A DNA stretch of 64,000 bases. Origin: an uncultured Thermoleophilia bacterium (GTDB lineage: Bacteria > Actinomycetota > Thermoleophilia > UBA2241). The position numbers and the translations under genes were made by a program. The DNA is taken from positions 439,032-503,031 of the forward strand of contig CAVPXV010000005.1 of the NCBI GenBank assembly GCA_963709845.1, given 5' to 3'. The notes under the pieces were generated by a model that worked only from the letters and a program-made list of their open reading frames with translations, ran no database searches and was not told where the DNA came from. Below, in pieces: positions 22,160-56,862 of the stretch (its first letter is position 1; each line of letters opens with the position of its first letter).

Positions 22160-22645
22160 GTGGCGCGACGCAAAGGACTCGTCATCAACGATCGGCAGCT
22201 CGACCGCTGCGACGAGCTCCTGCAGAAGCTCAAGGACGTCTCCGGGTCCAGCTTCCTGGCGCTGATCAGCACGTCCGGGCAGCCGATCACCACGGCCGCC
22301 GACGCCTACCACCCAGAGACGCTGTCTCTCGCCTCGCTCGCGGCGAGCTCGTTCGCGGCCACGCAGCAGCTCGCCAAGATCCTCGACGAGAGCGAGTTCA
22401 CGCTCCTCTTCCACGAAGGCAAGGCCCTCAATCTGCACGTCTCCCAGGTCAACGAGCAGGTGCTGCTCATCGTCACCTTCGGGCGCGACACGCAGGTCGG
22501 CAAGGTGCGCCTCTACACGCAGCGCGCCATCGAAGTGCTGCGCCAGATCTTCGAAGGTCCTGACGACGGCACCACGCCGACGATGGACGCCGATTTCGAG
22601 GCCACCGCCGGCGACGCCATCGACGACCTGTTCAAAGACGTCTGA
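22160..22645 (+). CDS. mglB: Roadblock/LC7-domain protein, MglB-like GTPase-activating partner
   Basis: GTG start after GGAGGG. Roadblock fold pattern (LQKLKDVSGSSFLALISTSGQPI...LLIVTFGRDTQVGKVRLY). Immediately upstream of mglA. The long 5' ORF-track extension is a GC artefact. Confidence 0.7.
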   Translation: MARRKGLVINDRQLDRCDELLQKLKDVSGSSFLALISTSGQPITTAADAYHPETLSLASLAASSFAATQQLAKILDESEFTLLFHEGKALNLHVSQVNEQVLLIVTFGRDTQVGKVRLYTQRAIEVLRQIFEGPDDGTTPTMDADFEATAGDAIDDLFKDV

Positions 22646-22655
22646 GAGCCTGCCG

Positions 22656-23234
22656 ATGCCGCTGATCAATTTCGCCGCCCGCGAGATCAACTACAAGATC
22701 GTCTACTACGGCTGCGGGCTCTGTGGGAAGACCACGAACCTGCAGTACGTGCACCGCAAGATCAACCCCGACGCGCGCGGCAAGCTGGTGAGCATCGCCA
22801 CCGAGGAGGAACGCACCCTCTACTTCGACTTCCTCCCGCTCACGCTCGGCACCGTCAAGGGCATGCAGACGCGCTTCCATCTCTACACCGTGCCCGGCCA
22901 GAGCTACTACAACGCCAGCCGCAAGCTCGTGCTGCAGGGCGTCGACGGCGTCGTCTTCGTGGCCGACTCGCAGATCACACGCCTGGACGAGAACGTCGAG
23001 AGCTACCTCAACCTCTGGGACAACCTCCTGGGCCAGGGCGACGACCTCACCAAGCTGGGGTTCGTCGTGCAGATGAACAAACGGGACCTCACCGACATCT
23101 TCTCGGTGGAGGACCTCAACGAGCTGCTCAACCACACCCAGTCGCCCGTCGTCGAGTCGAGCGCGGTCAGCGGCGAGGGCGTGTTCGAGACGCTCAAAGT
23201 CGTCTGCAAGCAGGTCATCGCCAAGACCGGCTGA
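22656..23234 (+). CDS. mglA: Ras-like small GTPase MglA
   Basis: End-to-end similarity to Myxococcus/Thermus MglA (INYKIVYYGCGLCGKTTNLQYV, FHLYTVPGQSYYNASRKLVLQGVDGVVFVADSQ, NKRDL). Confidence 0.9.
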   Translation: MPLINFAAREINYKIVYYGCGLCGKTTNLQYVHRKINPDARGKLVSIATEEERTLYFDFLPLTLGTVKGMQTRFHLYTVPGQSYYNASRKLVLQGVDGVVFVADSQITRLDENVESYLNLWDNLLGQGDDLTKLGFVVQMNKRDLTDIFSVEDLNELLNHTQSPVVESSAVSGEGVFETLKVVCKQVIAKTG

Positions 23235-25134: not shown

Positions 25135-27657
25135 CTAGTCGTTCTCCGCGATCACGTCGCGCACCACCGCGAGCAGGTCCTCGGCCAGGCGCTCCGACTC
25201 GGCGTGGTCCGCGCCCTCGGCGTAGACGTGGAAGACGGGCTCGTCGGCGTCCGGCAGGAGCTGGACCCAGCTGCCGTCGTGCCGCATCCTGATCCCGTCC
25301 AAAAGGCTGATCTCGGCGCCGGCGGCGGCGCGCTGCTGCAGACCCTCCGTCGCCGTGCGCATCACCGTGCCCTTGAGCGACCAGGGGCAGGCCACGGTCT
25401 TGTGTACCAGGGTGCTGGCGGGGATGTCGGCGACCTGCGCGCTGAGGGGCCGCGCCTGCGGCGCCAGCAGCTCCAGCAGCTTGCCCAGGCTCATGACGGC
25501 GTCGAAGGCGGGCAGGAACTGCGGGAAGATGTAGCCGCCGCCGAGCGCCCCGGCGAACACGACGCCGTCCTCGAGTGACGCCTTGGCGAGCTCCGGCAGC
25601 GAGACTTTGGTGCGCACGATCTCGACGCCGAACTCGCCGGCGAGCTGCTCGGCGAGGTGCGTGATGGTGAGCGGCAGCACGATCTTCTCGCCCCTGCCCG
25701 CCTGCTGCGCCACGAGCTTCACGAACAGGAGGAGCGCCTTCTCGAGAGGCACCTCGGCGCCCGAGTCGTCGATGATGTAGATGCGCTCGGCGCCCGGGCC
25801 GATGACCACGCCGAGGTCCGCCTCCATGGTACGCACCAGGCGCTGCACCTCGGCGATGTTGGCGCCGAGCTGCTCCGCGTCGAGGCTCACGTGGCGCTGA
25901 TCGTTGAAGGCGCGCACCGAGAGGACCTCGGCGTCGAGGTCGCCGAGGATGTTGGGCAGCGAGAGCGAAGCGGGTGAGTGCGAGTAGTCGATCACGAGGC
26001 GGTAGGCGCGGCTGCGGATGCGCTCCCCGTCCCACGAGCCTTTGAGGCCGCGCACGTAGGTCTCCATCGCCCTGTCGGGGAACTGGAGCTCGCCGAACTC
26101 GCTGTAGAAGGCGCGGCGGAAGTCCTCGCGCCCGTAGTACTTCTCGATGTCCTTCTGGCGTTTCTCGCTGAGGTTGAGGCCGGGGGGCTCGAACACCTGG
26201 ATCTGGATCATCTCCGGGTCCCAGCTCGAGATGCGCACGTGCATGCCGCCGTCGGCGCTCCCCGTCCTGGCCTCGTACCTGTTGATGGCGCTGCTGGCGA
26301 CGCGCAGATCGCGCACGATGACGCCGGTGGAGTTGAGGCCGCAGATGAGGGCGCGCTTGATGACCCGCGAGGCCGGATGGGCGTCGCGGCTCGTGGTGAC
26401 GCTGGCGCCCTTCTTGAGCGCCGTGCCGTAGGCCATCGCCAGCTTGAGCGCGAGCTCGGCGGTGATGTCGACGTTGATCAGGCCGGTGACGCCGTCCTTG
26501 CCGAAGAGCTGCGCCGTGCCGCGTGACTCCCAGATGATGCTCGAGTTGACCTGCGCGCCGGCCTCGACCGTCTTGAACGGGTAGACCTTGACGTCCGGGG
26601 CGATGTAGGCCTGCTCGCCGATCACGCACTCGTCGCCGATGGCGACGCCCTCGCTGAAGGTGGCGCCGGCCTTGACGTCGCAGTTCTTGCCGACGATGGT
26701 GCCGTACACCTTGGCCGACGAGCCGATGTACGTGTTGGCGCCGATGACGCTGTTGCGCGTCTCGGCGTGCCCTTTGACCACGACGTTGCTGCCCAGGACG
26801 GAGTACCTGCCGATGGACGCCGTGGCGTCGATCTTGGCGTAGTTGCCGATGAACGCCGGACCGCTCATGTTCTCGAGCGAGTCGAGGTTGATGCCGTCGC
26901 CGAGGAAGATGCGGTCGTGAAGCTCGATGCCGGGGATCTCGGCCTCGACCTTGCCGTCGAGGAGGTCGCGGTTGGCGGCGAGGTACTGCGGCAGGCTGCC
27001 GATGTCCTGCCAGTAGCCCTCCGCGACGTAGCCGAAGAGGGGCGCGCCCATCTCGAAGAGCTTCGGAAACAGGTCCTGGCTGAAGTCGTACTGGGTGTCG
27101 GCCGGGATGTGGTCGAAGACCTCGGGCTCGAGCACGTAGATGCCGGTGTTGACCGTGTCGCTGAACACCTGGCCCCAGGTGGGCTTCTCGAGGAAGCGCT
27201 CGATGCGGCCTTCCTCGTCGACGACGACGACGCCGAAGTCGAGGGGGTTCTCGACGCGCTTGAGCGCGATGGTGACCATGGCGCCGCGGCGCTTGTGGAA
27301 GGCGACGATCTCGCTGAGGTCGAAGTCGGTGAGCGCGTCCCCCGAGATGACGATGAAGGTGTCGTCGCGCAGGTGGTCCTCGGCCAGCTTCACGCTCCCG
27401 GCGGTGCCGGCCGGCGCCTGCTCCACGGAGTAGTTCATGCTCACGCCCAGCGACGAGCCGTCGCCGAAGTAGTCGCGGATGACCTTGGGCAGGAACATCA
27501 GCGTGACCACGGTCTCGTCGATGCCGTGCCGCTTGATGAGCTCGACGATGTACTCCATGCAGGGCTTGCCGCAGAGCGTCACCATCGGCTTGGGCTGGTT
27601 GCTGGTGAGCGGGCGCAGCCTGGTGCCCTCGCCGCCTGCCATGACGACCGCACGCAT
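25135..27657 (-). CDS. Sugar-phosphate nucleotidyltransferase (left-handed beta-helix C-terminus) fused to a phosphomannomutase/phosphoglucomutase-like domain
   Basis: ATG after [26 protein letters not shown] nucleotidyltransferase motif with hexapeptide repeats. The C-terminal alpha/beta PGM/PMM-like domain lacks a canonical TASHNP phosphoserine loop ([13 protein letters not shown] instead). Confidence 0.8.
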
Positions 27658-28446: not shown

Positions 28447-28524
28447 CGGCGTGTGGCGCAGCCTGGTTAGCGCACTAGTCTGGGGGACTAGGGGTCGCCG
28501 GTTCAAATCCGGCCACGCCGACCA
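28447..28524 (+). tRNA. tRNA-Pro (anticodon GGG)
   Basis: Manually folded cloverleaf: 7-bp acceptor CGGCGTG/CACGCCG, D-arm GCGC/GCGC, anticodon stem CTAGT/ACTAG with loop CTGGGGG, T-arm GCCGG-TTCAAAT-CCGGC, encoded CCA. Confidence 0.85.
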
Positions 28525-32961: not shown

Positions 32962-33786
32962 ATGGCACGCCCACTCTGGAAGGGAAGCATCAGTTTCGGA
33001 CTCGTCTCCATCCCCGTCCACGTGTACTCGGCGACCCGCGCGCGAGCGCTGCGCTTTCGTCAGCTCGATCGTCGCGACAAGTCCCCGATCCGCGAACAGC
33101 GGATCAACGAGACGACCGGCCGCGAGGTGCTCTGGGAGGACATCGTCAAGGGCTACGAGTACGAGAAGGACTCCTTCGTGATCGTCGAGCCCGAGGATTT
33201 CGAACGCGCCAACGTCAAGGCGACCGAGACCATCGAGATCATGCAGGCCGTGCCGCGCGACGCGCTGGCGCCTGAGTACCTCGAGACTCCGCTGTTCGTG
33301 GTGCCGACCAAGGCCGGCATCAAGGCCTACCACCTGCTGCGCGAGACCCTGCGCCACAGCGACCGGCTGGCGATCGCGACGATCGTCATGCGCGGGCATC
33401 AGCACCTGGCCGCGCTGATCCCCCACGAGGACGTCATGATGCTGGAGCTCCTGCGCTTCGCTCACGAGCTCAAGGCGCTCTCCGATCTCGACCTCGACTA
33501 CGACATCTCGGCGCCGGAGACGAGGCCCGCCGAGATCGAGATGGCGGAACAGCTGGTCGCGGCGCTCGACGCACCGTGGCAGCCCAAGCAGTACCGCGAC
33601 GAGTACCGCGACGACCTGCTGGCGTTCATCGAGCGCAAGGCGAAGAGCGGCGAGAAGCCGGTGCGCAGCGCCGGCCGCGCCGACCGCGGCGAGCCCGCCG
33701 AAGTGGTGGACATCATGGAGCTGCTCAAGCAGAGCGTCGGCGAGGCGCGCGGCCGCGGCCGCTCGCGCCAGCGCAAGGCGAGCTGA
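32962..33786 (+). CDS. ku: Non-homologous end joining protein Ku
   Basis: MARPLWKGSISFGLVSIPVHVYSAT N-terminus and full Ku core. Confidence 0.9.
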   Translation: MARPLWKGSISFGLVSIPVHVYSATRARALRFRQLDRRDKSPIREQRINETTGREVLWEDIVKGYEYEKDSFVIVEPEDFERANVKATETIEIMQAVPRDALAPEYLETPLFVVPTKAGIKAYHLLRETLRHSDRLAIATIVMRGHQHLAALIPHEDVMMLELLRFAHELKALSDLDLDYDISAPETRPAEIEMAEQLVAALDAPWQPKQYRDEYRDDLLAFIERKAKSGEKPVRSAGRADRGEPAEVVDIMELLKQSVGEARGRGRSRQRKAS

Positions 33787-33801
33787 CGAGCAGGCTCAGG
33801 G

Positions 33802-36372
33802 ATGAGCCCGCTCGAGACATACCGCGACAAGCGCGACTTCGAGAAGACGGCGGAACCCGAGGGCCGTGCGTCGCGGCGGCGCTCGCGCGCCGCCGAAGCG
33901 GGCGGCGCCTTCGTCATCCACAAGCACGCGGCGCGCCGGTTGCACTACGACCTGCGCCTGCAGATGGACGGCGTGCTGCGCAGCTGGGCGGTGCCCAAAG
34001 GGCCCAGCCTGGACCCCGCGGTGAAGCGCCTCGCCGTCCACGTCGAGGACCATCCCCTGGAGTACGGCGCGTTCGAGGGGGTGATCCCCAAGGGCGAATA
34101 CGGCGGAGGGACGGTCATGATCTGGGACGCCGGCCTCTGGGAGGCGATCGGCGACGCGCCGGCCGGCTACCTCCGCGGCGAGCTCAAGTTCCGTCTCGAC
34201 GGTCAGCGCCTGCACGGCGCCTGGGTGCTCGTGCGCCTCAAGGGCCGCTCGGAGTCGGGAGAGGGCGCCGGAGACGGCCGCGACTGGCTGCTGATCAAGG
34301 AACGCGACGCCGAGGCGCAGCCGGGCGGCGCCGACCCGTGGGGCGACGAGGACCGCAGCGTGACGAGCCGGCGCACGATGAGCGAGATCGCGGCGGCCAG
34401 TCCACCGCCGGCGGCGCGCGGGCAGGCGTCGCGCACCGCCTCGCGCCGGCCGCGCACCGGTGGGCGGTCCTCCCCACCGCCCGCCGCGGCGAGCGTCACG
34501 CTGGCCACGCTCGTCGACGGTCCGCCCGACGGTGACGACTGGCTGCACGAGATCAAGTTCGACGGCTACCGCATCCTGGCGCGCCTGGACCACGGCCACG
34601 TGACGCTGCTTTCGCGCAACGGCCTCGACTGGACGCACCGCTTTCCGACGCTGGCCAAGGAGGTGGCGGAGCTGGAGACGGACGGCGCCCTGCTCGACGG
34701 CGAAGTCGTCGCCTACCGGGCGGACGGCGTCAGCGATTTCGGCGCCCTGCAGCGCGCCTTGAGCGAGGCCGACGACCGCAGCCTGACCTACATGGCGTTC
34801 GACCTCCTGCACGCCGACGGCGCCGACCTGCGGCGGCTGCCGCTGGCGAGGCGCAAGGCGCGCCTCGCCGAGTTGCTGCGAGCGGGAGAGGCCGGCGGCT
34901 CGGGCATCATCCGCGTCAGCGACCACGTCGCCGGCCACGGGGCGGCCTTCTACGCGGAGGCCTGCCGCCTCGGGCTCGAGGGCGTCGTCTCCAAGCGCGC
35001 CGACAGCGCCTACGCCGGCCGGCGCTCGCGCTCCTGGCTCAAGAGCAAGTGCGGCAAGCGTCAGGAGTTCGTCGTCGGCGGCTTCACGGACCCTGCCGGC
35101 AGCAGGACCGGGTTCGGCGCCCTCCTCGTCGGCGCCCGCGAGGCCGACGGCAGCCTGCGCTTCGCCGGCAAGGTCGGCTCCGGCTTCAGCGACGCCGACC
35201 TTCGGCGCCTGGCGCCGCGCCTGAAGGCCGCGGCGCGCCGGTCCTCGCCGTTCGCCGCGGCCGCCACGGTGCGCGGCGCGCACTGGGTCACGCCGAGACT
35301 GGTGGTCGAGGTCGCGTTCGCGGGCTGGACGAACGAGGGACGCCTGCGCCAGCCCGTGTTCAAGGGCGTGCGCGAGGACAAGCCGGCCGCGGCCGTGCGC
35401 CGCGAAGGCGCGGCCGCCAAGGCGTCCGCGCCCGCGAAGCCGCCGGCGGACCCGGACGCGGGTGCCGGCAAGCGCCCGAAGGCCGGCGCCCCTGTCTCCG
35501 TGGCCGGCGTGAGGATCTCGCACCCCGAGCGCCTCGTGTATCCCGACGTCGGGATGACCAAGCTCGAGGTCGTCAGCTACTACGAGGCGGTCGCGGAGCG
35601 CATGGTCCCGCAGCTCGACGGCCGGCCGCTCACCGTCGTGCGCTGCCCCGAGGGCGCCGCCGAGGAGTGCTTCTTCCAGAAGCGCGCGGCCGCGTCGATC
35701 CCCGACCGGGTCGAGAGGGTGACCGTCGCGCCGGGGCGCGGCAACCGCGGCACCATGGTCTACCCCGCCGTCACGAGCACGGCGGCGCTGATCACGATGG
35801 TGCAGATGGGCGCCCTCGAGTTCCACATCTGGGGATCGCGCGAGGCCACGCTCGAGGCTCCGGACAGGGTGGTGTTCGACCTCGACCCCGCCCCGGAGGT
35901 GAGGTGGGCCGAGGTGCGCACGGCGGCCCTGCGCCTGCGCGACGATCTGCGCGAGCGGGGGCTCGAGAGCCTGGTGATGACGTCCGGCGGCAAGGGGCTG
36001 CACGTCGTCGTCCCGCTGCGGCCGCAGGCCGGCTGGGATGCCGTCGCCGGCTTCGCCCGCGAGGTCGCCGAGGGTCTCGTGGCGCAGTATCCGCAGCAGT
36101 ACGTCGCCACCATGTCGAAGGCAAAGCGCGCCGGCAAGGTGTTCATCGACCACTTCCGCAACGGTCGCGGCGCGACGGCGATAGCGCCGTACTCACTGCG
36201 CGCCCGCGACGGCGCGGCGGTGGCCACGCCTCTGGCGTGGGACGAGCTCGCGAGGACCGCGGGAGGGGCCGTCTGGACGGCGCCGCGGGTGCTCCGCCGG
36301 CTGCGCTCCCGCGAGGATCCGTGGGCTGAGGCGGGCTCGCTCGGCCGGCAGACCTGGAGGCAGCGGCGATGA
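33802..36372 (+). CDS. ligD: Multidomain ATP-dependent DNA ligase LigD (phosphoesterase-ligase-polymerase order)
   Basis: N-terminal PE domain (FVIHKHAARRLHYDLRL), ligase motif I EIKFDGYR, C-terminal primase-polymerase domain (SHPERLVYPDVGMTKLEVVSYYEAVAERM). Confidence 0.9.
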   Translation: MSPLETYRDKRDFEKTAEPEGRASRRRSRAAEAGGAFVIHKHAARRLHYDLRLQMDGVLRSWAVPKGPSLDPAVKRLAVHVEDHPLEYGAFEGVIPKGEYGGGTVMIWDAGLWEAIGDAPAGYLRGELKFRLDGQRLHGAWVLVRLKGRSESGEGAGDGRDWLLIKERDAEAQPGGADPWGDEDRSVTSRRTMSEIAAASPPPAARGQASRTASRRPRTGGRSSPPPAAASVTLATLVDGPPDGDDWLHEIKFDGYRILARLDHGHVTLLSRNGLDWTHRFPTLAKEVAELETDGALLDGEVVAYRADGVSDFGALQRALSEADDRSLTYMAFDLLHADGADLRRLPLARRKARLAELLRAGEAGGSGIIRVSDHVAGHGAAFYAEACRLGLEGVVSKRADSAYAGRRSRSWLKSKCGKRQEFVVGGFTDPAGSRTGFGALLVGAREADGSLRFAGKVGSGFSDADLRRLAPRLKAAARRSSPFAAAATVRGAHWVTPRLVVEVAFAGWTNEGRLRQPVFKGVREDKPAAAVRREGAAAKASAPAKPPADPDAGAGKRPKAGAPVSVAGVRISHPERLVYPDVGMTKLEVVSYYEAVAERMVPQLDGRPLTVVRCPEGAAEECFFQKRAAASIPDRVERVTVAPGRGNRGTMVYPAVTSTAALITMVQMGALEFHIWGSREATLEAPDRVVFDLDPAPEVRWAEVRTAALRLRDDLRERGLESLVMTSGGKGLHVVVPLRPQAGWDAVAGFAREVAEGLVAQYPQQYVATMSKAKRAGKVFIDHFRNGRGATAIAPYSLRARDGAAVATPLAWDELARTAGGAVWTAPRVLRRLRSREDPWAEAGSLGRQTWRQRR

Positions 36373-39011: not shown

Positions 39012-39200
39012 TCAGCGCTCGCGCGCCTTCCGCTTCACCTGCCTGCGGTCCAGGTAGAAGCGACCGCCGATCGTCTTCCCCCACAAGTCCCCGGCCACGA
39101 CCATGCGCCGGATCTCGAAGACGTCGATGCAGAGCAACTCGGCGGCCTCTCTCGTGGTCATCACCGGACATTCGGCTTGCGATCGCTGCTCCAGGGCCAT
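39012..39200 (-). CDS. xis: Excisionase/Xis-like HTH DNA-binding protein
   Basis: 62 aa with TTREAAELLCIDVFEIRRMVVAGDLWGKTIGGRFYLDRRQV (excisionase-family HTH pattern). Strong RBS GAGGAGGGA. Confidence 0.55.
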   Translation of the reverse strand: MALEQRSQAECPVMTTREAAELLCIDVFEIRRMVVAGDLWGKTIGGRFYLDRRQVKRKARER

Positions 39201-44859: not shown

Positions 44860-46565
44860 TCAGCGGTCGAGCAGCTCCCGCAGAGCGGCGGCGAGCTCGG
44901 CCACGGGCACGTCGCGGCGCTCGCCGCCGGCGCGGTCCTTGAGCTCGACGACGCCCTCGGGCGCGCGTTTGCCGACGACCACCTGCGCCGGGCAGCCGAG
45001 CAGGTCGGCGTCCTTGAACTTGATGCCCGGGGCTCAGGTCGCGGTCGTCGTAGAGCACCTCGAAGCCGGCGGCGGCGAGCTCGGCGTAGAGCCGCTCGGC
45101 GAGCGCCGCCTGCGTCTCGTCGGAGGCGCGCACGAGCACGAGGTGCACGTGGAACGGCGCGATCGCCGCCGGCCAGACGATGCCGTTGCCGTCGTGGTGC
45201 TGCTCGATGGCGGCGGCGGCGATGCGCGCCAGGCCGATGCCGTAGCTGCCCATGACGATGTCCTGCTCCTTGCCGTCCTCGTCGAGGTAGGTGGCGCCCA
45301 TGGGGTGCGAGTACTTGGTGCCGAGCTGGAAGATGTTGCCGACCTCGATCACCCGGGCGCCCTCGAGCTGCGTGGGCGCAGCGCGCGCAGGGGTCGCCCG
45401 GGCGCGCCTGGCGCAGGTCGCGGAACTCGGCCTGCGGGATCTGCGCCGGCGAGACGCCGCCGCGGTGGTAGTCGGGCTTGTTGGCGCCGGCGACGTAGGA
45501 GCCCCGGCGCAGCGCCTCGTCGGCGATCACCGGCAGCGAGGTCGGCACGGGGCCGACGAAGCCCGGCTCGATGCCCTGGGCAGCGAGCACCTCGTCGGCC
45601 GTCGCCATGCGCAACTCGGCGCCGAGCGCCTTGCGCAGCTTGAGCTCGCTGAGCTCGTGGTCGCCGCGCAGCAGGACCATGACGGCGCGGCCCTCGCCGC
45701 CCTCCGCGTCCTCGGCGATCACCACGAGCGCCTTCACGAAGCCGCGCGCCGGCACGCCGAGGAAGGCGCTCACCTCGGCGATGGTGCGCGCCCCGGGCGT
45801 GTGCAGCTCGCCCTCGCCGGGCACCTCGGCCGGCGCCTCCGCATCGGCGCCGGCGACGGCCGTCTCCACGTTGGCCGCGTAGCCGCACTCGCGGCAGTAG
45901 ACGATCTCGTCCTCGCCGGCCTCGGCGAAGGCCATGTACTCGTGCGAGACGTCGCCGCCCATCATCCCCGAGTCGCCCTCGACCATCATCACCGCGAGGC
46001 CGCAGCGCGCGTAGATGCGCTCGTAGGCGCCGATGTGCTTGCGGTAGCTCTCCTGGAGGGCCTCGAAGCTCACGTCGAGGCTGTAGGAGTCCTTCATGAT
46101 GAACTCGCGCGTGCGCAGCACGCCGCTCTTGGGCCGCGCCTCGTCGCGCTCCTTGGTCTGGATGTGGTACCAGAGCTGCGGCAGCTGCTTGTAGCTGTGG
46201 ACCTCGCGCGCCGCCAGCCAGGTGATGACCTCTTCGTGGGTCATCGCCAGCGCCATGTCGGCGCCCTTGCGGTCCTTGAGGCGGAAGAGCTCCTCGTCGA
46301 TGGCGTCCCAGCGGCCCGACTGCTGCCAGATCTCGGCCGGGTTGATGACCGGCATGAGCATCTCCTGGCAGCCGATGGCGTCCATCTCCTCGCGGATGAT
46401 GGCGGCGATCTTCTGCATCACGCGCCAGCCGGCCGGCAGGTACACGTAGACGCCGGCGGCGAGCTGGCGCACGAGGCCGGCGCGCACCATCAGCTTGTGG
46501 CTGATGGCCTCGGCGCCGGCCGGATCCTCTTTGACGGTGGGCAGGAGCAGCTGACTGGCGCGCAT
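44860..46565 (-). pseudogene. proS: Proline--tRNA ligase (bacterial type), two frame changes near the 3' end
   Basis: N-terminal 400 aa intact in ORF 44730..46565 (MRASQLLLPTVKEDP..., class II motifs). The anticodon-binding domain continues in ORF 44786..45352 ([18 protein letters not shown]...). The last about 55 aa ([10 protein letters not shown]...LLDR) are in a third frame. Confidence 0.8.
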
Positions 46566-46609: not shown

Positions 46610-48856
<2,247 letters not shown>

Positions 48857-48913: not shown

Positions 48914-50067
48914 TCAGGCTCGCACGAGCCTTCGCGCGTACTTCGTCGCCAGACGCAACGGCCTGTAGGGCCAGTACAGTGCCGTGAAGGCCGGCTTCAG
49001 ATCGAGCGCCACCCAATCCCCGGGGCCGGGCGTAAAGAGCCTTCGCAGCACGGATTCTGCCGCCGCCAGCGCCGAATCCTCGCTGAGCGCCATCCTGGCC
49101 AGGCTGCGCAGCTCGGCGCCGACCCCGGAAGAGCGGCCTTCGTGAAGCTGGAGAAGAGCCGCGCGAGCCAGCGACTCCGCGAGTGGGTCGCCGGAGAGCT
49201 CGGCCTGGACCTCCAGCGGCAGTGGCAGGTCGAGGGCCACACTCACGACGCGCGCGCCGATCAGACCACGGCGCAAGCAGCGCCAGCGGCGGGCGTCATC
49301 GAGGAAGATCCGCCACTGCGTCGGTGTCATCATGCGCATGACTCTCCCCGCGACCACCACTAGTTCAAGCCGGTCCCACTCGTGCCTTGCGCCGTGCACG
49401 CAGAGCATGAGCAGCGTGTCGTCCAGGCTCGGAGCGGCCACCGACCTGTCAAGTAGGTCAATCGAGTCGAGCGTTCGATGAGATGGTCCGCCGGGATAGA
49501 TGTGGCCTTCAGTAGCGTGCCGACGCGCTCGTGCACCTCCAGCAGGCAGTCGAGGGCTGGGCTGTCGAAGGCCAGCTCCCCGCCCTGCGCGAGATGCGAC
49601 GCGTCGTGCTCCGGTGGCCAGCCGCCGCGACGCGTGAACCCTTCCCGCAGCAGCGCTTCCGTCGCGAGCGGCACCTGCTCGTGAGGGACCAGCACGTCGA
49701 GGTCGGCCGGGGCTCTCAAGCCCGGGTCACCGAACGCTTGCACACTCAGCACGGGGCCCTTGTACGGCAGCGCCGTGATGCCGGCGGCAGACAGTAGGTC
49801 GAGCACGCGGCACAGTCGTGAGGACATGAAGAGGCCGCGCTGCACGGAAGATCGGTAGAGGCTCTGCAGGGTGTCCTTGGCGTCGGCCGGGCACAGGGAC
49901 GGATCCAGCGAGAGCACCTGCTTGTAGAGGAGCGCGCTGAGCCGGTGGTCGATGCTCTGCTGGATTACGGTGGGCCAGTCGACGGTGGCCCGAGCCGCCC
50001 GCTCGAGGTCGCTCGTCGAGGCCGCGCCGACCGCGACGCGCGCGCACGCCACCAGGAGCGGCGACAA
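48914..50067 (-). pseudogene. Nucleotidyltransferase-family protein (PF14907-like, RiPP-cluster associated), one frame change near 49400
   Basis: N-terminal part ...ITALPYKGPVLSVQAFGDPGLRAPADLDVLV; C-terminal part LLMLCVHGARHEWDRLEL in the adjacent frame. Confidence 0.65.
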
Positions 50068-50077
50068 GCCGGGCGCG

Positions 50078-51223
50078 TCAGCCAGTGTCCTCTCTCCTAT
50101 CGCCCGAGGATGGGCCGGGCGCCGGCGCCGCCAGTCGCCCGGCCGGGAACAGGCCGTCCTGCTCGGCGAGCTCGCAGAACCAGTAGGCGCCGAGCACGTC
50201 GCCGGAGCGGTAGTAGTTCTGGGCGATGCAGGAGCCGAGGCAGGCGGCGCGCATCAGGCAACGGCCACACACACCGCCGAGGCCGTCGGGCAGACCCTCG
50301 CGGATGCGCACGAGCACCGGGTGCTCGCGCCAAACGTGCGCCAGCTCGCCCTCGCCGGCGCGACCGAATACCAGCTCCGGCACGTGCTCGCCGATGCCGC
50401 ACAGCGCGTAGCTGCCATCGGCCAGCAGGCCCAGGATCCCACGGATGCCGCAGATGCCGCAGCCGTCGCCGCCGAGGTACTCCCCGAGGGGGCGGAAGGC
50501 CGCGGGGACGTCGACGTAGATCGGCAGGGAGAACCGCTGCCGGAGGTCGTCGCGCACCCGCGAGTGAAGCTCCAGGTACTCGCCGATCGACAGCCCCTCC
50601 CCGCTGGCGTAGATGTCCTCGCCGCGCAGCGTCGGCTGGATGAAGTTGATCTTCACGGAGCCGACGCCCAGCTCCTCGGCGAGCTCCAGCACCGCCTCGA
50701 GCTCGCCGACGTTCGTGCGCATCGCGCTCGTGATGAACTGCGTGTCGAGCCCTGCGGCGACCAGGTTGCGCGTGCCCTCGAGCGTGCGCGCATGCGCCCC
50801 GCGCACGCCGCGGATGGCGTCGTGCACGTCCGCGGAAGCGCCGTCGAGGCTCACGGAGACGAAGTCCACGCCGGCCTCCAGGAGGTGCTCCGCCAAGGCG
50901 CTGGTGACCAGGAGGCCGTTGGTCTCCATGTGCCCGCCGAGCCCGTGATGTGCCTGGATGTCCAGCAGCTCGCCGAAGGCCGGGTGCAAGGTCGGCTCTC
51001 CGCCCGTCCACTTGAGCGTCGTCAGGCCGAGCGGCTTGGCCTCCTCGATGGCGGCGTCCAGGGCGGTAGGCGTGAGGAAGCGCGCGGCGCGGCCGCCGCC
51101 CGCCTTCTTGGCAGGTACGATCCAGCAGTGCCTGCAGGCGCAGTTGCAGCCGTCGGTCACGTACACGTAGAGCTGGCGCAGGGGCGGCGTGCTCACGCTC
51201 GCCGGCGACTCCGTCACTTCCAC
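50078..51223 (-). CDS. Radical SAM/SPASM-domain peptide-modifying enzyme
   Basis: Cx3Cx2C cluster DGCNCACRHCW and a Cys-rich C-terminal SPASM region (CGICGI...CGIGE...CGRCLMRAACLGSC). Confidence 0.85.
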   Translation of the reverse strand: MEVTESPASVSTPPLRQLYVYVTDGCNCACRHCWIVPAKKAGGGRAARFLTPTALDAAIEEAKPLGLTTLKWTGGEPTLHPAFGELLDIQAHHGLGGHMETNGLLVTSALAEHLLEAGVDFVSVSLDGASADVHDAIRGVRGAHARTLEGTRNLVAAGLDTQFITSAMRTNVGELEAVLELAEELGVGSVKINFIQPTLRGEDIYASGEGLSIGEYLELHSRVRDDLRQRFSLPIYVDVPAAFRPLGEYLGGDGCGICGIRGILGLLADGSYALCGIGEHVPELVFGRAGEGELAHVWREHPVLVRIREGLPDGLGGVCGRCLMRAACLGSCIAQNYYRSGDVLGAYWFCELAEQDGLFPAGRLAAPAPGPSSGDRREDTG

Positions 51224-52318
51224 CCCGCGATCCCCTCGGCCTCGAGCTCCGCCTCAAAGCGGCGCAGGCAGGCGTCGGGGCTCGGCCGATTGGCGTCGCC
51301 GAGCAGCGAAAGGGCTCCACCGGCGCAGTTGCCGGTGCACGACTCGATGTAGTCGCAGCCCGCGCACTCCTCGAACTCGGCCAGCGCTTTCTGCCGGCGC
51401 GCGCGCAGCTCCTGCAGCGCCGGCGCGCTCTGCCACACGTCCACAAGCCGGTCTTCGCCGATGTGGCCGAGTACGATCTGCGGCAGCGCCACGCACGGCA
51501 CGTAGGCGCCGTCGGCGCGCACCGCAAGTTGCTTCAGCATGCAGCCGCAGCCCACGAGTTTGCCATGCCCTGGGATGGGCTCTCCCGCCTCCCGCGCCAG
51601 CTCCAGGGCGCAGAACATGTGCCAGTCAGCGAGAGGGCCGGCCATGGCAGTCACGCGCCCCGGATAGCGTTCCTCGAGCTCGGCGAGCGTGTGCATGGCC
51701 TGCACCCGCTGCGCCGGCGTGAGGAACATCCCGAGCTCGTACTTCTCGTGGGTGCCCAGCGAGGTGATGGCGTTGGTGCTGAACGTCGGCAGGCCGAGGT
51801 CGTCGAGCAGGAGCGCCGCCAGCGCCGGCAGGTCGTCGAGGTTGGCGCGCGTTCACAGTCACGCGCACGGTCGTCGGCAGCCCGGCCGCCTGCAGCGTGC
51901 GGATCGCGCGCAGTGCAGGCTCGAAGGTGCCGGGGCCGCGCAGGCGCTCGTGCGCCGCTGCGGTGGAGCCGTCCAGGGAGACCTGGACGGACGAGCACCG
52001 CCGCGTCGCCGCCAGCGCCTGCGCGAGCTCAGCCGTGACGAACCACCCGTTGGTGAGCACGCGAAAGCGGATGTTGCGGCTGCCGAGCTCCTCGGCCAGC
52101 TCGACGAAGTCGGGCCGCATCAGCGGCTCTCCGCCCGCCAGCGTGGCTTCGAGGACCTTTGCCTCGGCGAGTTCGTCGAAGAAGGCGAGCCACGCCGACG
52201 TGGGCAGGTCCTCGTAGCGCACGCCCTCGTTCTTCAGGTAGTAGCAGTAGGCGCAGCGCGCGTTGCAGCGGCTGGTGAGCTCCAGGTCGACCTCGAGAGG
52301 CGTGCGCGGCAGCGAGGC
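51214..52318 (-). pseudogene. Second radical SAM/SPASM-domain enzyme, one frame change near 51680
   Basis: Radical SAM half LELTSRCNARCAYCYY...LAGGEPL in ORF 51626..52504. SPASM half (CGCMLKQLAVRADGAYVPCV...CAGCDYIESCTGNCAG) in ORF 51214..51729. Confidence 0.75.
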
Positions 52319-52323
52319 CAGCG

Positions 52324-52623
52324 TCACGAAGCCACCCTCAGCGCACCCGCGTCGGCCAGGGCGCCCAGCAGCTCCACCACCTCGCGGCTCCCCTCCTGGT
52401 CGAAGCCGTCGAAGCCGCGGCGGAGTTCCGCCAGCAGGTCTCCGACCGTGCGTTCGCCGACCACAAGCCTCCACACGGCAACCGTCGAGCGATTCGCGAC
52501 CCACACCTCGCCGGTGTCCGCGTCGAACAGGATCGCCTCGCCGCCATCTTCCTCCCTGAGCACCCAGCTCGGGTTGATGGTGACTCGCGCGCCCGCGTCC
52601 AAATCGGGTCGATCAGCTCGCAT
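52324..52623 (-). CDS. PqqD-family peptide chaperone (RiPP recognition element)
   Basis: 99 aa with WVLREEDGGEAILFDADTGEVWVANRSTVAVWRLVVGERTVGDLLAEL, the PqqD pattern. Confidence 0.7.
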   Translation of the reverse strand: MRADRPDLDAGARVTINPSWVLREEDGGEAILFDADTGEVWVANRSTVAVWRLVVGERTVGDLLAELRRGFDGFDQEGSREVVELLGALADAGALRVAS

Positions 52624-52676
52624 CGTGCCTCCACTCCCCGCGACTCCTCGACGTCTCGCGCCGGAGTCGCGCTACA

Positions 52677-53681
52677 ATGGCCCCGCTGACTTTCACCGCA
52701 ACGTCAGGCGGTGTCAACCGACCTCAGAGGCCATGTTGCCTTCTCATCCTGTCGACAAGAGGAACGCCTCGCGACCGCATCGGGCGCATCTCCTTCGGCC
52801 CACTGCAGTACGAGCTTGTCGCCGCCGACGACTGGGGCGATGCCACACTGGACGACGTACGTCGACACGTCGAGATGCAGACCTTCGAGGGCGCCTCGCT
52901 GCGGCGCGTGATCTACGCCGGTGTCGAGACTACACAAGCGGAACGGCGGATGGTGGATGGGGGCCGTTTGCCAGCCCCCCTCCAGGCTGCTCACGCCGGC
53001 GCCCTGCCGGCGGACGGGTGGCGGGTCACCGGTGACGACGCCGGCAGCATCCTTTGGCTGCACCCGGGTTCGCCCGTCACCTTCTTGACACCCAGCCCCC
53101 TGCCGCCGCCGCTGCGCGCGCGCATCCGCCTGCCCTGGCAGGCGATCGTGCAGGACGTCGTGGGCTACGGTGGCGCCGTCGTGCACGCAGCCCTCGTGAC
53201 GCACGCCGACAGGGCCTACCTGCTCACCGCTCCCCCTGGGGGCGGCAAGACGAGCACCGTCGCACGCCTGCCCAAGGGTTGGACGCTGCTGGGTGACGAC
53301 GGCTGCCTGCTGTGGGCTGGCAGCGGGCAGTTCTTCGCCAGCCCGCTGCCCACGTGGAGCCACGTGCTGGGCGTAGGCGCAGCGCCGGTCGGGGTCGTGA
53401 CATGGCGCGTCGCTGACGCAGTACCAGTGTACGGCCTTGTCCTGCTGACGAAGGCAGCGCGAGACTCGCTCGCAGAGCTGGACCCCCTCGGAGCCACGGT
53501 GGCGTTCTACCGCGCCTTCTCGGAGCACCCCGCTGTCGTTGGCGCGAGGACAGAGCTGCGTGCTCACCTACTCGAGACGGTCGGCGCTCTCGCGGATACT
53601 GTACCTTGCCACGAGGCACGATTGGCCCTCGCTGCGGCACCGCTCGACGATCTCTTCTGCGCACTGGCTGATGCTGGCTGA
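52677..53681 (+). CDS. HPr-kinase-like (HprK C-terminal-like) P-loop protein of RiPP clusters
   Basis: GGAVVHAALVTHADRAYLLTAPPGGGKTSTVARLPKGWTLLGDDGCLL matches the HprK-related kinase core. Confidence 0.65.
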   Translation: MAPLTFTATSGGVNRPQRPCCLLILSTRGTPRDRIGRISFGPLQYELVAADDWGDATLDDVRRHVEMQTFEGASLRRVIYAGVETTQAERRMVDGGRLPAPLQAAHAGALPADGWRVTGDDAGSILWLHPGSPVTFLTPSPLPPPLRARIRLPWQAIVQDVVGYGGAVVHAALVTHADRAYLLTAPPGGGKTSTVARLPKGWTLLGDDGCLLWAGSGQFFASPLPTWSHVLGVGAAPVGVVTWRVADAVPVYGLVLLTKAARDSLAELDPLGATVAFYRAFSEHPAVVGARTELRAHLLETVGALADTVPCHEARLALAAAPLDDLFCALADAG

Positions 53682-54306
53682 GCGCGCCGACAGGGACGTA
53701 CGACACTTCGTCTACCGCGGGCGAAGCATGTGGCCGCTGTTCCGGGACGGTGACGTCCTCATGGTGCGGCCGGTGCGTGGGCGATCGATACGCCTGGGGG
53801 ACTGCGTCGTGTTTTGCTCGCGACCCGGCCTGCCGCCGATAGTCCACCGTGTCGTTGGCCGCACGGGCGGTTACAGAACGAGAGGCGACGCGCACGCCGA
53901 GTACGACGATCAAGTACTGGGCTCGCTAGACGTGATCGGCGTCGTCTCTGCGCGAGTCCGGGCCGGAGCCGTCAGTAGGGTGTCAAGAGGTTGGAGGGGC
54001 CTCGGCGCGGCGAGCATCGCTCGCCAGGCCGCGAAGCTCGATCCTGCGCTCGACTCGCGAGGCGGCGCACTGGCTCGCGTGCTGAGGCGCACGCTGACGC
54101 GGGCGGCGGACAACCTGGGCCGCCGTGTGACCCACGTGCCTCAGCCTCAGGGTCAAGGAGATCGCGTGGTGCGGCTGGAACTGCTGGGGAAGGTCGTCGG
54201 CGTGCACACCATGCGGCACAGGCACATCGACGTCGACGTGTTCTGGCCGTGGACGCTGCTCTTCACAGCTGAAGCCCTCGAGGAGGGTATCTGCGGGCGA
54301 AGCTAG
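53671..54306 (+). CDS. S26/LexA-like signal-peptidase family protein (candidate leader peptidase)
   Basis: GRSMWPLFRDGDVLMV...GDCVVF...PIVHRVV...TRGDAHAEYDDQV...VIGVV, the SPase I / S24-S26 motif order. ATG overlaps the upstream stop. Confidence 0.65.
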   Translation: MLAERADRDVRHFVYRGRSMWPLFRDGDVLMVRPVRGRSIRLGDCVVFCSRPGLPPIVHRVVGRTGGYRTRGDAHAEYDDQVLGSLDVIGVVSARVRAGAVSRVSRGWRGLGAASIARQAAKLDPALDSRGGALARVLRRTLTRAADNLGRRVTHVPQPQGQGDRVVRLELLGKVVGVHTMRHRHIDVDVFWPWTLLFTAEALEEGICGRS

Positions 54307-54333
54307 GCTTCAGCGCCAGACCGCCGCTCAGGT

Positions 54334-54522
54334 CTACCTGCTGGAGCCGACCTGGCAGTTGCCCTGAAAGTGAGTCCCGCCGGTCTGACAGTGGTTGCCG
54401 GAGGCCGCGGTGCTGCCCGTCTCACAGACGCCGGTCGTCACTGTAGAACCGTTGCTGCACGCCCCAAAGACTTCGGGTAGGGACTCAAGTTTGACTAACT
54501 TTGGTGTCTCCCAACGCTCCAC
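54334..54522 (-). CDS. Candidate RiPP precursor peptide (62 aa, 4 Cys in 11-12-residue repeats)
   Basis: GTG start with RBS AAAGGGG. MERWETPKLVKLESLPEVFGA leader-like part, then CSNGSTVTTGV/CETGSTAASGNH/CQTGGTHFQGN/CQVGSSR. Codon usage is A/T-ending (tta, aaa, ttt, aca, tct, tgt), unlike the rest of the window. Confidence 0.6.
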   Translation of the reverse strand: MERWETPKLVKLESLPEVFGACSNGSTVTTGVCETGSTAASGNHCQTGGTHFQGNCQVGSSR

Positions 54523-54895
54523 AGTTCGGCCCCTTTGTGTGCGTTTCCCGCTCGGTTGCGCGCCATCCTACTTCGTTCGGGGTTCCGGACGCAAGAGTCA
54601 GGATGGTGTCAAGCATGCCTTTCGCGACCAGGTCCTCGACGAACGCGAGGAGGTCACCGAGCAAGTCGTCTGGCGCCGCGTCGAATCGCGTGGCCGCTCC
54701 GCCGACCACGTCGCGCAGCGGTCGAGAGCCGTCGATGAGCTCCCAGATCGCCTGCCCTGTCGCGTTGAGCGTGAACAGATCGTCGAGCGGGTCGCCGGCA
54801 TCCGCGTGCAGGGGCGCGAGGACGACGCGGCCGCCGACCAGGCGGGCCGCGACGTCCGGCGAGTGGATCAGGACGGTGTCGGGTGAGAGCGTCAC
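54485..54895 (-). CDS. Second PqqD-family protein
   Basis: GTG start. VLAPLHADAGDPLDDLFTLNATGQAIWELIDGSRPLRDVVGGAATRF pattern. The 3' end overlaps the precursor ORF start in another frame. Confidence 0.6.
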   Translation of the reverse strand: MTLSPDTVLIHSPDVAARLVGGRVVLAPLHADAGDPLDDLFTLNATGQAIWELIDGSRPLRDVVGGAATRFDAAPDDLLGDLLAFVEDLVAKGMLDTILTLASGTPNEVGWRATERETHTKGPNCGALGDTKVSQT

Positions 54896-55074
54896 GGTCG
54901 CGCCATTATGCCACGCCGCGCCCGCCCCTCCTCCCCCACCGGGCGCATTCTCTGTAGTATCTGGGCGGGCCGCGCCCGCCGCAGGGGGAGCGCGGCCCGG
55001 GCCCGAGGAGGCCGGCGCTGAGCGAGGAGCAACGCAAGCCCCAGATCCGCGACGCCCTGCACCTCGTCGACGCG

Positions 55075-56862
55075 GTGCGGCTGGTGTGGCGCGCCGCCCC
55101 GGGCTGGACCGTCCTCACCGTCTCCCTCGCCTTCGTCCAGGGCATCCTGCCGCTGTTCGCCGTCTACCTGATGAAGCTCATCGTCGACGCGGTGACGCAG
55201 GGCATCACGCAGGCCGACCACGCCGCCGCCTTCCGCACCGCCGCCTTCTACATCGCCCTGGCGGCGCTCGTCGGCCTCGCCACGGCGCTCCTGCGCTCGC
55301 TCGGCGCCGTCGCCAGCGAGGCCATGGGCCAGGTGGTCACCGACCACGTCAGCGACCTCATCCACGAGAAGTCCATCGCCGTCGACCTCGAGTACTACGA
55401 GAACGCCGAGTACTACGACACCCTGCAGCGCGCCCAGAACGAGGCGCCCTCGCGCCCCACGCAGATCGTCAACGACCTGCTGAGCACCGGCCAGAGCCTC
55501 ATCTCCGTGATCGCCATGGTCGGCCTGCTGCTCACGCTGCAGTGGTGGGTCGGCGCGATCGTCGTCGCTCACCGCCATCCCCGGCGCCCTCGTGCGCGTG
55601 CGCTACTCGCACCGCCTCTACGACTGGCAGCGCGGGCGCACCTCCACCGAGCGCCGCGCCTGGTACGCGCACTGGCTGCTCACCAGCGGGCCGCACGCCA
55701 AGGAGGTGCGCCTCTTCGGCCTCGGCGAGCTCTTCCGCGGCATGTACAGCGACCTGCGCCGCGTCCTGCGCACCGAGCGCATCGGCATCGCCAAGCGGCG
55801 CGCCGCCGCCGACTTCGCCGCCGGCGCCCTGGCCGTGCTCGCCATCTTCGGCACCTTCGCCTACATCGTCTGGGAGACGATCATCGGCGCCATCAGCCTG
55901 GGCTCCATGGTGATGTACTACCAGGCCTTCCAGACCGGCCTCACCTCGCTGCAGGCCGTGCTCGGCGGCATGGCCGGGCTCTACGAGGACAACCTCTTCC
56001 TCACCTACTACCACGAGTTCATGGCGCTGGAGCCGCGGGTGCTGCCGCCGGCGCAGCCGGCGCCGGTCCCGCGGCCGATGAGCGAGCGGCGTCCACTTCG
56101 AGGCCGTCGACTTCGCCTACCCGGACACGGAGCGCCAGGCGCTCGCCGACGTCACCCTCGACATCCGCCCCGGCGAGGTCGCCGCCCTGGTCGGCCCCAA
56201 CGGCTCCGGCAAGACCACGCTCGTCAAGCTCCTGTGCCGGCTCTACGACCCCACGGCCGGCGCCATCACCCTCGACGGCACCCCGACCGAGCGCCTTCGA
56301 CGTCAGCGAGCTGCGCCGCCAGATGAGCGTCATCTTCCAGGACTTCTCGCAGTACCAGTTCACGGCGCGCGAGAACATCCGCATCGGCAACGTGGAGCTG
56401 GCGGCGGGCGACGCCGGCGGCGGAGGCGGCGGTGGAGGCCGCCGCCCGCGAGGCCGGCGCCGACGAGGTCATCCGCAGCCTGCGCCACGGCTACGAGACG
56501 ATGCTCGGGCAAGCTGGTTCGAGGAGGGCGAGGAGCTGAGCGTGGGCGAGTGGCAGAAGGTGGCGCTCGCCCGCGCCTTCGTGCGCGACGCGCAGATCCT
56601 CGTCCTCGACGAGCCCACGAGCGCGCTCGACCCGGAGGCCGAGTGGCAGATCTTCCAGCACATCCGCGAGCTCGCGCGCGGCCGCGCCGTGGTGCTCATC
56701 AGCCACCGCTTCAGCACCGTGCGCACGGCCGACCGCATCCACATCCTCGACGGCGGCCGCATCGTCGAGAGCGGCAGCCACGACGAGCTCGTCGCCCTCG
56801 GCGGCCGCTACGCGCGCATGTACGAGGTGCAGGCGCGCGCATACACCACCGGCGACGGATAG
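55075..56862 (+). pseudogene. ABC exporter (fused TMD-NBD, MsbA/MdlB-like), at least 5 frame changes
   Basis: TMD in ORFs 55075.. and 55592..56326. NBD motifs split across frames (Walker A GPNGSGKTTLVKLL, Q-loop, signature LSVGEWQKVALARAF, Walker B ILVLDEPTSALD, H-loop ISHR). Confidence 0.8.

Follow-up and report, generated by a model that had tools for sequence, protein, structure and literature searches.

The window, that is, the whole 64-kb stretch of DNA analysed here, carries on its minus strand proS, the gene for prolyl-tRNA synthetase (ProRS), with gmd (GDP-mannose 4,6-dehydratase) directly upstream of it, followed by fcl (GDP-L-fucose synthase); the fcl-gmd-proS order is also present in a further locus, L016. 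A SynChlorMet-type RiPP maturation cassette lies at 49061-56856. The coordinates of these features, together with those of two parts of the window that differ in their content of frame changes, are collected in Table 1.

Table 1. Features of the window, with the frame changes found in them and the profile matches obtained after stitching frame-shifted fragments together
Feature	Positions	Strand	Remarks
Clean part	1-38418		about 35 genes, zero frame changes (codon model and stop test)
Intact control gene, clean part	25138-27651
tRNA-Pro(GGG)	28447-28524
Excisionase-like HTH ORF	39015-39164
Frameshift-dense part	40500-64000		at least 35 frame changes without a stop nearby; nearly every gene affected
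proS as it stands	44860-46565	minus	ATG at 46565, TGA at 44860-44862; three frames
proS segment 1	45378-46565	minus	codons 1-396; class II motifs 1-2 and INS/tRNA_edit domain
proS frameshift site A	45368-45377		10 nt, against 9 in all six relatives
proS segment 2	45033-45367	minus	motif 3 and first part of anticodon-binding domain; ends ...YDDRDLS
proS frameshift site B	45026-45032		coding strand CCCCGGG (7 nt)
proS segment 3	44860-45025	minus	last 54 codons, ...ELLDR*; further +1
gmd	46699-47874	minus	7 frame changes and one after the GTG start; stitched, PF16363, 332/332 positions, 495.6 bits, 7 shifts crossed
fcl	47875-48856	minus	at least 5 frame changes and a compensated pair
NTP_transf_5	49061-50085		stitched, 1 shift crossed
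ScmF radical SAM/SPASM	50086-51223		TIGR04251, 425.6 bits; intact
ScmE radical SAM	51224-52332		stitched, TIGR04250, 351/358 positions, 406.8 bits, above cut-off, 1 shift crossed
ScmD/PqqD-like gene	52333-52599
ScmC/HprK-like gene	52770-53525		weak match
Second PqqD-like gene	54599-54904
ABC exporter	55015-56856		stitched, ABC_tran, 137/137 positions, 3 shifts crossed
Sugar transferase			stitched, Bac_transf, 2 shifts crossed
GNVR			stitched, 1 shift crossed

In the sequence as deposited proS is recovered as three HSPs, in frames -3, -1 and -2, both by blastx and by tblastn. Segment 1 starts with MRASQLLLPTVKEDPAGAEAISHKLMVRAG and ends in translation with ...RPGDPCARC, matching a state -2 assigned by a codon-usage model over 45374-46553. 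Past codon 396 its frame stays open for 215 more codons of Arg/Pro/Ala-rich nonsense, the unrepaired ORF measuring 611 aa; the wrong frame remains open so long after each shift because the window is 71% GC throughout. Segment 2, of about 117 codons, is read at +1 relative to segment 1. The shift between them, at site A, is located in three variable codons between the CxxC and LEGAR motifs, just before catalytic motif 3, where the coding strand reads ...TGC GCCCACGCAG CTCGAG. No single position can be assigned to the extra base, CAC[G]CAG and GC[C]C both being possible. The shift at site B falls at amino acids 513/514, within the Pfam HGTP_anticodon domain. That proS carries two frame changes, as stated in the original prediction, was confirmed by three-frame translation and by alignment with six relatives. 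The positions proposed for them, 45010 and 45355, were close but slightly off, the real ones being 45026-45032 and 45368-45377, and the account of a displaced anticodon-binding domain is approximate: the second shift is indeed inside that domain, but the first comes just before motif 3.

With two bases removed, proS encodes a bacterial-type ProRS of 567 aa. The repaired protein scores 722.6 bits against NF006625 (cut-off 558; profile positions 1-558 of 559) and 604 bits against TIGR00409 (cut-off 306.7). The 611-aa unrepaired ORF reaches 480 bits against NF006625, below the cut-off of 558, and covers positions 1-395 of 559 only. All three parts of a ProRS were found by Pfam in the repaired protein: the class II core (tRNA-synt_2b, aa 94-457, profile positions 1-179 of 179), the INS editing domain (tRNA_edit, aa 256-367) and the anticodon-binding domain (HGTP_anticodon, aa 479-564). 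The repaired protein thereby shares with the NF006625/TIGR00409 family an INS-split class II core followed by a C-terminal HGTP anticodon-binding domain. The deposited sequence departs from that family in its lack of single-frame coding; bacterial-type ProRS is encoded in one uninterrupted frame, and the sequence as given is not. The unrepaired 611-aa ORF lacks motif 3 and the anticodon-binding domain, and its product would presumably be inactive, judging from what is known of class II synthetases.

A search at E ≤ 1e-100 gave about 8000 ProRS homologues, and the 120 that were listed measure 548-637 aa, none of them departing from normal length. The closest, best among the matches listed from 5.8 billion proteins, are 83% identical and belong to uncultured Thermoleophilia; they differ from the window protein in the variable insert inside INS, which is shorter in the window. 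Among the matches listed from the GTDB genome scan and from the 5.8 billion proteins, none exceeded 83% identity, and no intact proS of the same species appeared. A scan of metagenome DNA yielded two relatives at 82-86% nucleotide identity, not conspecific. Within the 64-kb window a tblastn search with the repaired protein found no second proS locus.

The proS DNA was aligned with that of six relatives, namely the Thermoleophilia MAG loci L001, L002, L003, L005 and L006 and the metagenome contig L081, the latter 86% identical in nucleotides to the proS of the window. The alignment contains exactly two frame-breaking indels specific to the window, and both are 1-nt insertions. At site B the window has AGCCCCGGGCATCAAG, as against AGCCCGGGCATCAAG in L001, L002, L005, L081 and L082, a second metagenome contig that was retrieved with a pattern permitting either run length. 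In these five the site is read AGC-CCG-GGC-ATC (CCCGGG), and against them the originally proposed insertion of 1 nt in CCCCGGGCATCAAG is correct. The loci L003 and L006 show substitutions only at site B, without an extra base, and the Pro codon of L006 is CCC, not CCG. On this evidence, the window may retain at site B the C allele and the G allele next to each other.

Restoration of ProRS in vivo by programmed recoding, through two +1 ribosomal frameshifts or transcriptional slippage, would agree with the +1 direction of both proS shifts, and the C4G3 run at site B could in principle slip. The probability of this reading is nevertheless negligible: six out of six aligned relatives encode the protein in a single frame, none with an extra base at either site, so that a recoding site is not conserved; no slippery motif exists at site A; and unrelated genes nearby contain dozens of comparable shifts in sequences that are not slippery.

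A different expectation follows if proS has truly and very recently become a pseudogene together with the surrounding 24-kb region, while a second ProRS encoded elsewhere supplies charging. The setting for such a loss would be reductive evolution or a redundant duplicated segment. Some bacteria carry two ProRS genes, the frame changes are truly in the sequence, and motif 3 and the anticodon-binding domain are lost from the unrepaired ORF. Selection on the three parts of the gene was analysed in the reading frame of L001. With Nei-Gojobori dS compressed by extreme GC3 bias and dN/dS used as relative values only, the ratio was 0.50 upstream of both shifts (82.6% amino acid identity to L001), 0.25 in the middle part, after site A (85.5%), and 0.18 in the last part, after site B (92.6%), the intact control gene giving 0.21. 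The parts of proS past each shift are conserved at least as well as the upstream part. Relaxed selection past the shifts was looked for through dN/dS and not found, and the corrected proS frames hold no in-frame stops. Purifying selection on the downstream segments, equal to or stronger than that upstream, argues against pseudogenisation.

A census of frame changes along the window was carried out with a codon-usage model trained on the window, as a Viterbi path through six coding frames and a non-coding state, and at every same-strand frame change the distance was measured over which the upstream frame runs to a stop. The model was used in place of blastx against stop-to-stop ORFs of related loci, whose results were noisy, matches turning up in all frames of DNA with 71% GC. 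It was checked against Pfam/NCBIfam, and its path places the limits of the three proS segments only a few bases off. Up to 38.4 kb, wherever two full-length gene segments of the same strand meet, a stop follows within 25 nt; the sole exceptions are three spurious path segments of 13-64 nt. The genes of this part, which include ftsK, rimO, pgsA, recA, recX, rny, miaB, miaA and dapF as well as hflX, dut, apt, ku and ligD, give single full-length blastx HSPs where relatives exist. Were frameshifts as frequent in the first part as in the second, it should contain about 57; 0 were seen. Frameshifted genes in the second part, at 40.5-64 kb, include those for the M14 peptidase, ProRS, Gmd, Fcl, NTP_transf_5, ScmE and the ABC exporter, and also glycosidase-like, Wzz/tyrosine-kinase, sugar transferase and UXS-like genes, among others. 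Shifts of +1 outnumber those of -1 by about 24 to 11 in this part, and the indels that were aligned against relatives are all of 1 nt, except for one insertion of 2 nt. In the genes checked no premature stops, and no large deletions or IS insertions, were seen.

The sequence thus changes sharply in quality inside one contig, with the boundary between the two parts within 38.4-40.5 kb, a region of weak codon-phase signal; strain collapse, patchy polishing and a chimeric join are possible causes. An in-frame TGA at about 40310 was considered as a nonsense mutation and rejected, since it has the appearance of a normal gene end and a start codon comes after it.

The lesions just described are of a different kind from those that characterise pseudogenes. 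Nonsense mutations, deletions of varied size and a deletion bias would be the mark of the latter, and only indels, nearly all of 1 nt, are present here. In reductive genomes, such as those of Mycobacterium leprae and insect endosymbionts, selection is relaxed, stops and deletions of all sizes accumulate, and the decay is spread over the whole genome; real genome decay spares single-copy aminoacyl-tRNA synthetases. What the window shares with such genomes is that genes still recognisable are frameshifted, at times many consecutive ones, but it shows none of their signs of decay. Bacterial mutation is deletion-biased, whereas the shifts of the window are biased to insertion; in the genes checked they come without premature stops, large deletions or IS insertions, and none of the about 35 genes in the neighbouring 38 kb is affected. 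The reading of proS as a pseudogene or as a product of symbiont decay, offered as one option in the original prediction, therefore found no relaxed selection or premature stops in the genes checked to rest on, and the shifts are insertion-biased and confined to 24 kb. Pseudogenisation is accordingly very unlikely. Also very unlikely is a localised, insertion-biased mutational burst that would just have inactivated the 24-kb block, with the only bacterial-type proS in it, in a free-living Thermoleophilia lineage surviving on a second ProRS; such a burst might stem, for instance, from error-prone repair or from some mutagenic process confined to a single segment of the chromosome.

In many unrelated genes a single conserved domain crosses the frame junctions, as found by searching stitched fragments against Pfam/NCBIfam (Table 1). 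A hot spot is the pair gmd and fcl: compared with the intact genes of L001, to which their nucleotide identity is 86%, they contain at least 17 indels in 2.2 kb. The overall amino acid identity of Gmd and Fcl to L001 is about 85%, and the first 121 codons of gmd, its 5' third, are 96% identical in amino acids, with a dN/dS of 0.06. Values of dN in gmd and fcl are 0.087-0.099, as against 0.081 in the clean control, and dS is also similar. The process that made the indels in gmd and fcl made no substitutions. Natural mutation yields many more substitutions than indels, and thus 17 indels without excess substitutions are not the outcome of natural mutation and drift, which again goes against pseudogenisation.

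Several details of these two genes were observed. At 48558/48544 in fcl a -1/+1 pair, 14 nt apart, compensates itself, and the conserved ...EAFAAGVRRLIFLGSSCIYP becomes ...EALPPASSKLIFLGSSCIYP (FAAGVRR to LPPASSK). A gene caller would miss such a pair, so the error load is higher than counts of frame changes indicate. The start of gmd reads GTG AGC [C] AAG, with an extra base (+1) just past the start codon. The last frame of fcl has no stop unless one more base is removed, in 47850-47935, and fcl and gmd probably overlap as GTGA. In the public Thermoleophilia Nanopore MAG MFD00905.bin.2.53 (L005, nt 2-1034) gmd matches two frames, with the junction at about nt 285-298; hence apparent frameshifts exist in at least one other assembly of the clade.

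The proS frame changes are very probably errors of the consensus, within about 24 kb that were badly assembled, and not mutations of the organism. This organism, an uncultured Thermoleophilia-like actinobacterium, most likely encodes a bacterial-type ProRS of 567 aa that is intact. We infer the indel errors themselves from the assembled sequence rather than from observation in reads. The suggestion that proS could serve as an internal control, marking the frameshifts nearby as errors of sequence, is supported by the results.

The identity of the inserted bases points to the way in which the errors may have arisen. In proS, gmd and fcl the added base of 10 out of 11 single-base insertions is an allele that relatives show in the neighbouring alignment column (0.34 expected under the null, P = 1.7e-4), the alleles of relatives, which are other species, being a stand-in for population alleles at 11 sites in three genes. 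To obtain the null, 195 random insertions were simulated and every one was re-aligned. Repeatedly in the multi-species alignments, a pair of unlike bases in the window faces a single base in relatives, among which both bases of the pair occur at that site. Thus, the window has ATC-ACGC-GTG where relatives have ACG or ACC, GTG-CG-TG where they have CTG or GTG, CGAC where they have CAC or CGC, and CCCG, at proS site B, where they have CCG or CCC; CGCG stands against CGG in relatives, CGG and CGC being synonymous codons for Arg. At the deletion at 46857 the column is also variable among relatives. Insertions adjoin third codon positions in 8 of 11 cases against two thirds expected, a comparison without power. 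Natural mutation would not make inserted bases match the alleles of relatives at neighbouring sites, a further point against pseudogenisation, and such matching is expected if the consensus was collapsed from mixed strains.

Length errors in homopolymers, of the 454, Ion Torrent or Nanopore style, were rejected as the main cause, since 10 of the 11 localised insertions do not lengthen a homopolymer, against 0.51 under the null (P = 0.007). A shared motif among the indel sites, such as a methylation site, was sought; nothing beyond GC richness was found, although CACGCAG occurs at two sites.

The most likely origin of the errors is a consensus into which reads of two or more closely related strains would have been collapsed. 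At strain-variable sites both alleles would be kept side by side, giving +1, or neither would be kept, giving -1; in a 71% GC genome the differences between strains would be mostly G/C at third codon positions. Collapse of this kind would concentrate errors in the strain-variable surface-polysaccharide/RiPP region and would spare the conserved core. As a close variant, a plain low-accuracy long-read consensus or a failure of local polishing may be envisaged.

Generic random sequencing error without strain mixing, from a low-coverage or unpolished long-read consensus or from gap filling with raw long reads in a hybrid assembly, would likewise make the frame changes an artefact, differing only in how the errors arose. 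An excess of insertions with few substitutions resembles the error profile of early single-molecule reads, and here insertions exceed deletions by about 2-3 to 1 with few substitutions. Truncation by frameshift is also a known signature of long-read assemblies (10.1101/285049), and the split gmd of the Nanopore MAG comes from the same clade. However, a uniform process does not explain why 0 and at least 35 changes are left in adjacent parts, nor the gmd-fcl hot spot; it keeps some credibility should raw long reads have been used to fill the second part alone. Random insertions predict a match to alleles in about 34% of cases and homopolymer extension in about half, and 10/11 and 1/11, respectively, were seen. 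As an account of the patchiness and of the allele pattern, generic error is inferior to strain collapse, and we regard it as a possible though rather doubtful origin of the errors.

Both kinds of artefact have precedents. Long-read assemblies yield proteins truncated by indels (Watson & Warr, 'Mind the gaps', bioRxiv 10.1101/285049), and the indel pseudogenes of PacBio CLR and Nanopore assemblies (10.1101/285049; Kastor, PMC12007338) resemble those of the window in that 1-nt indels break conserved, even essential genes, that proteins are shorter than their homologues or fall into pieces and that removal of the indels restores full-length matches. The window differs from them in the confinement of its errors to about 24 kb and in that these are mostly not of the homopolymer-length type. 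In Trypanosoma brucei Lister 427, collapsing alleles with nearby variants brings indel errors and apparent frameshifts, which vanish once the haplotypes are separated (PMC8445201). The inserted bases of the window, being the alternative allele of an adjacent site, are alike in this respect; T. brucei is, by contrast, a diploid eukaryote of known haplotypes (PMC8445201), whereas the co-assembled strains of the window are presumed from its sequence.

The proS result has no biological importance, as the organism almost certainly has a normal ProRS. Apparent pseudogenes, split genes and odd ORFs at about 40.5-64 kb should be treated as artefacts of sequence quality, including those in gmd, fcl, the ABC exporter, ScmE, the sugar transferase and the UXS-like gene, while the first 38 kb of the window are trustworthy. 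Indel errors at G/C wobble sites that carry the alternative allele can flag a mixed-strain consensus even without reads.

Other features of the window were noted along with the census. Past the tRNA-Pro(GGG) gene there are about 2.7 kb (to 31200) at a lower GC content of 67% and with little coding signal. The block at 28.5-44.3 kb is missing from L001 between the genes that flank it in the window, and the block may therefore be an integrated element. An intact pair encoding Ku and a multidomain LigD, of non-homologous end joining, is located at 32974-36364 and gives a single 874-aa HSP to L003. At 22178-23231 a roadblock/LC7-like gene adjoins a gene for a small Ras-like (MglA-type) GTPase; both were identified by eye and are intact.
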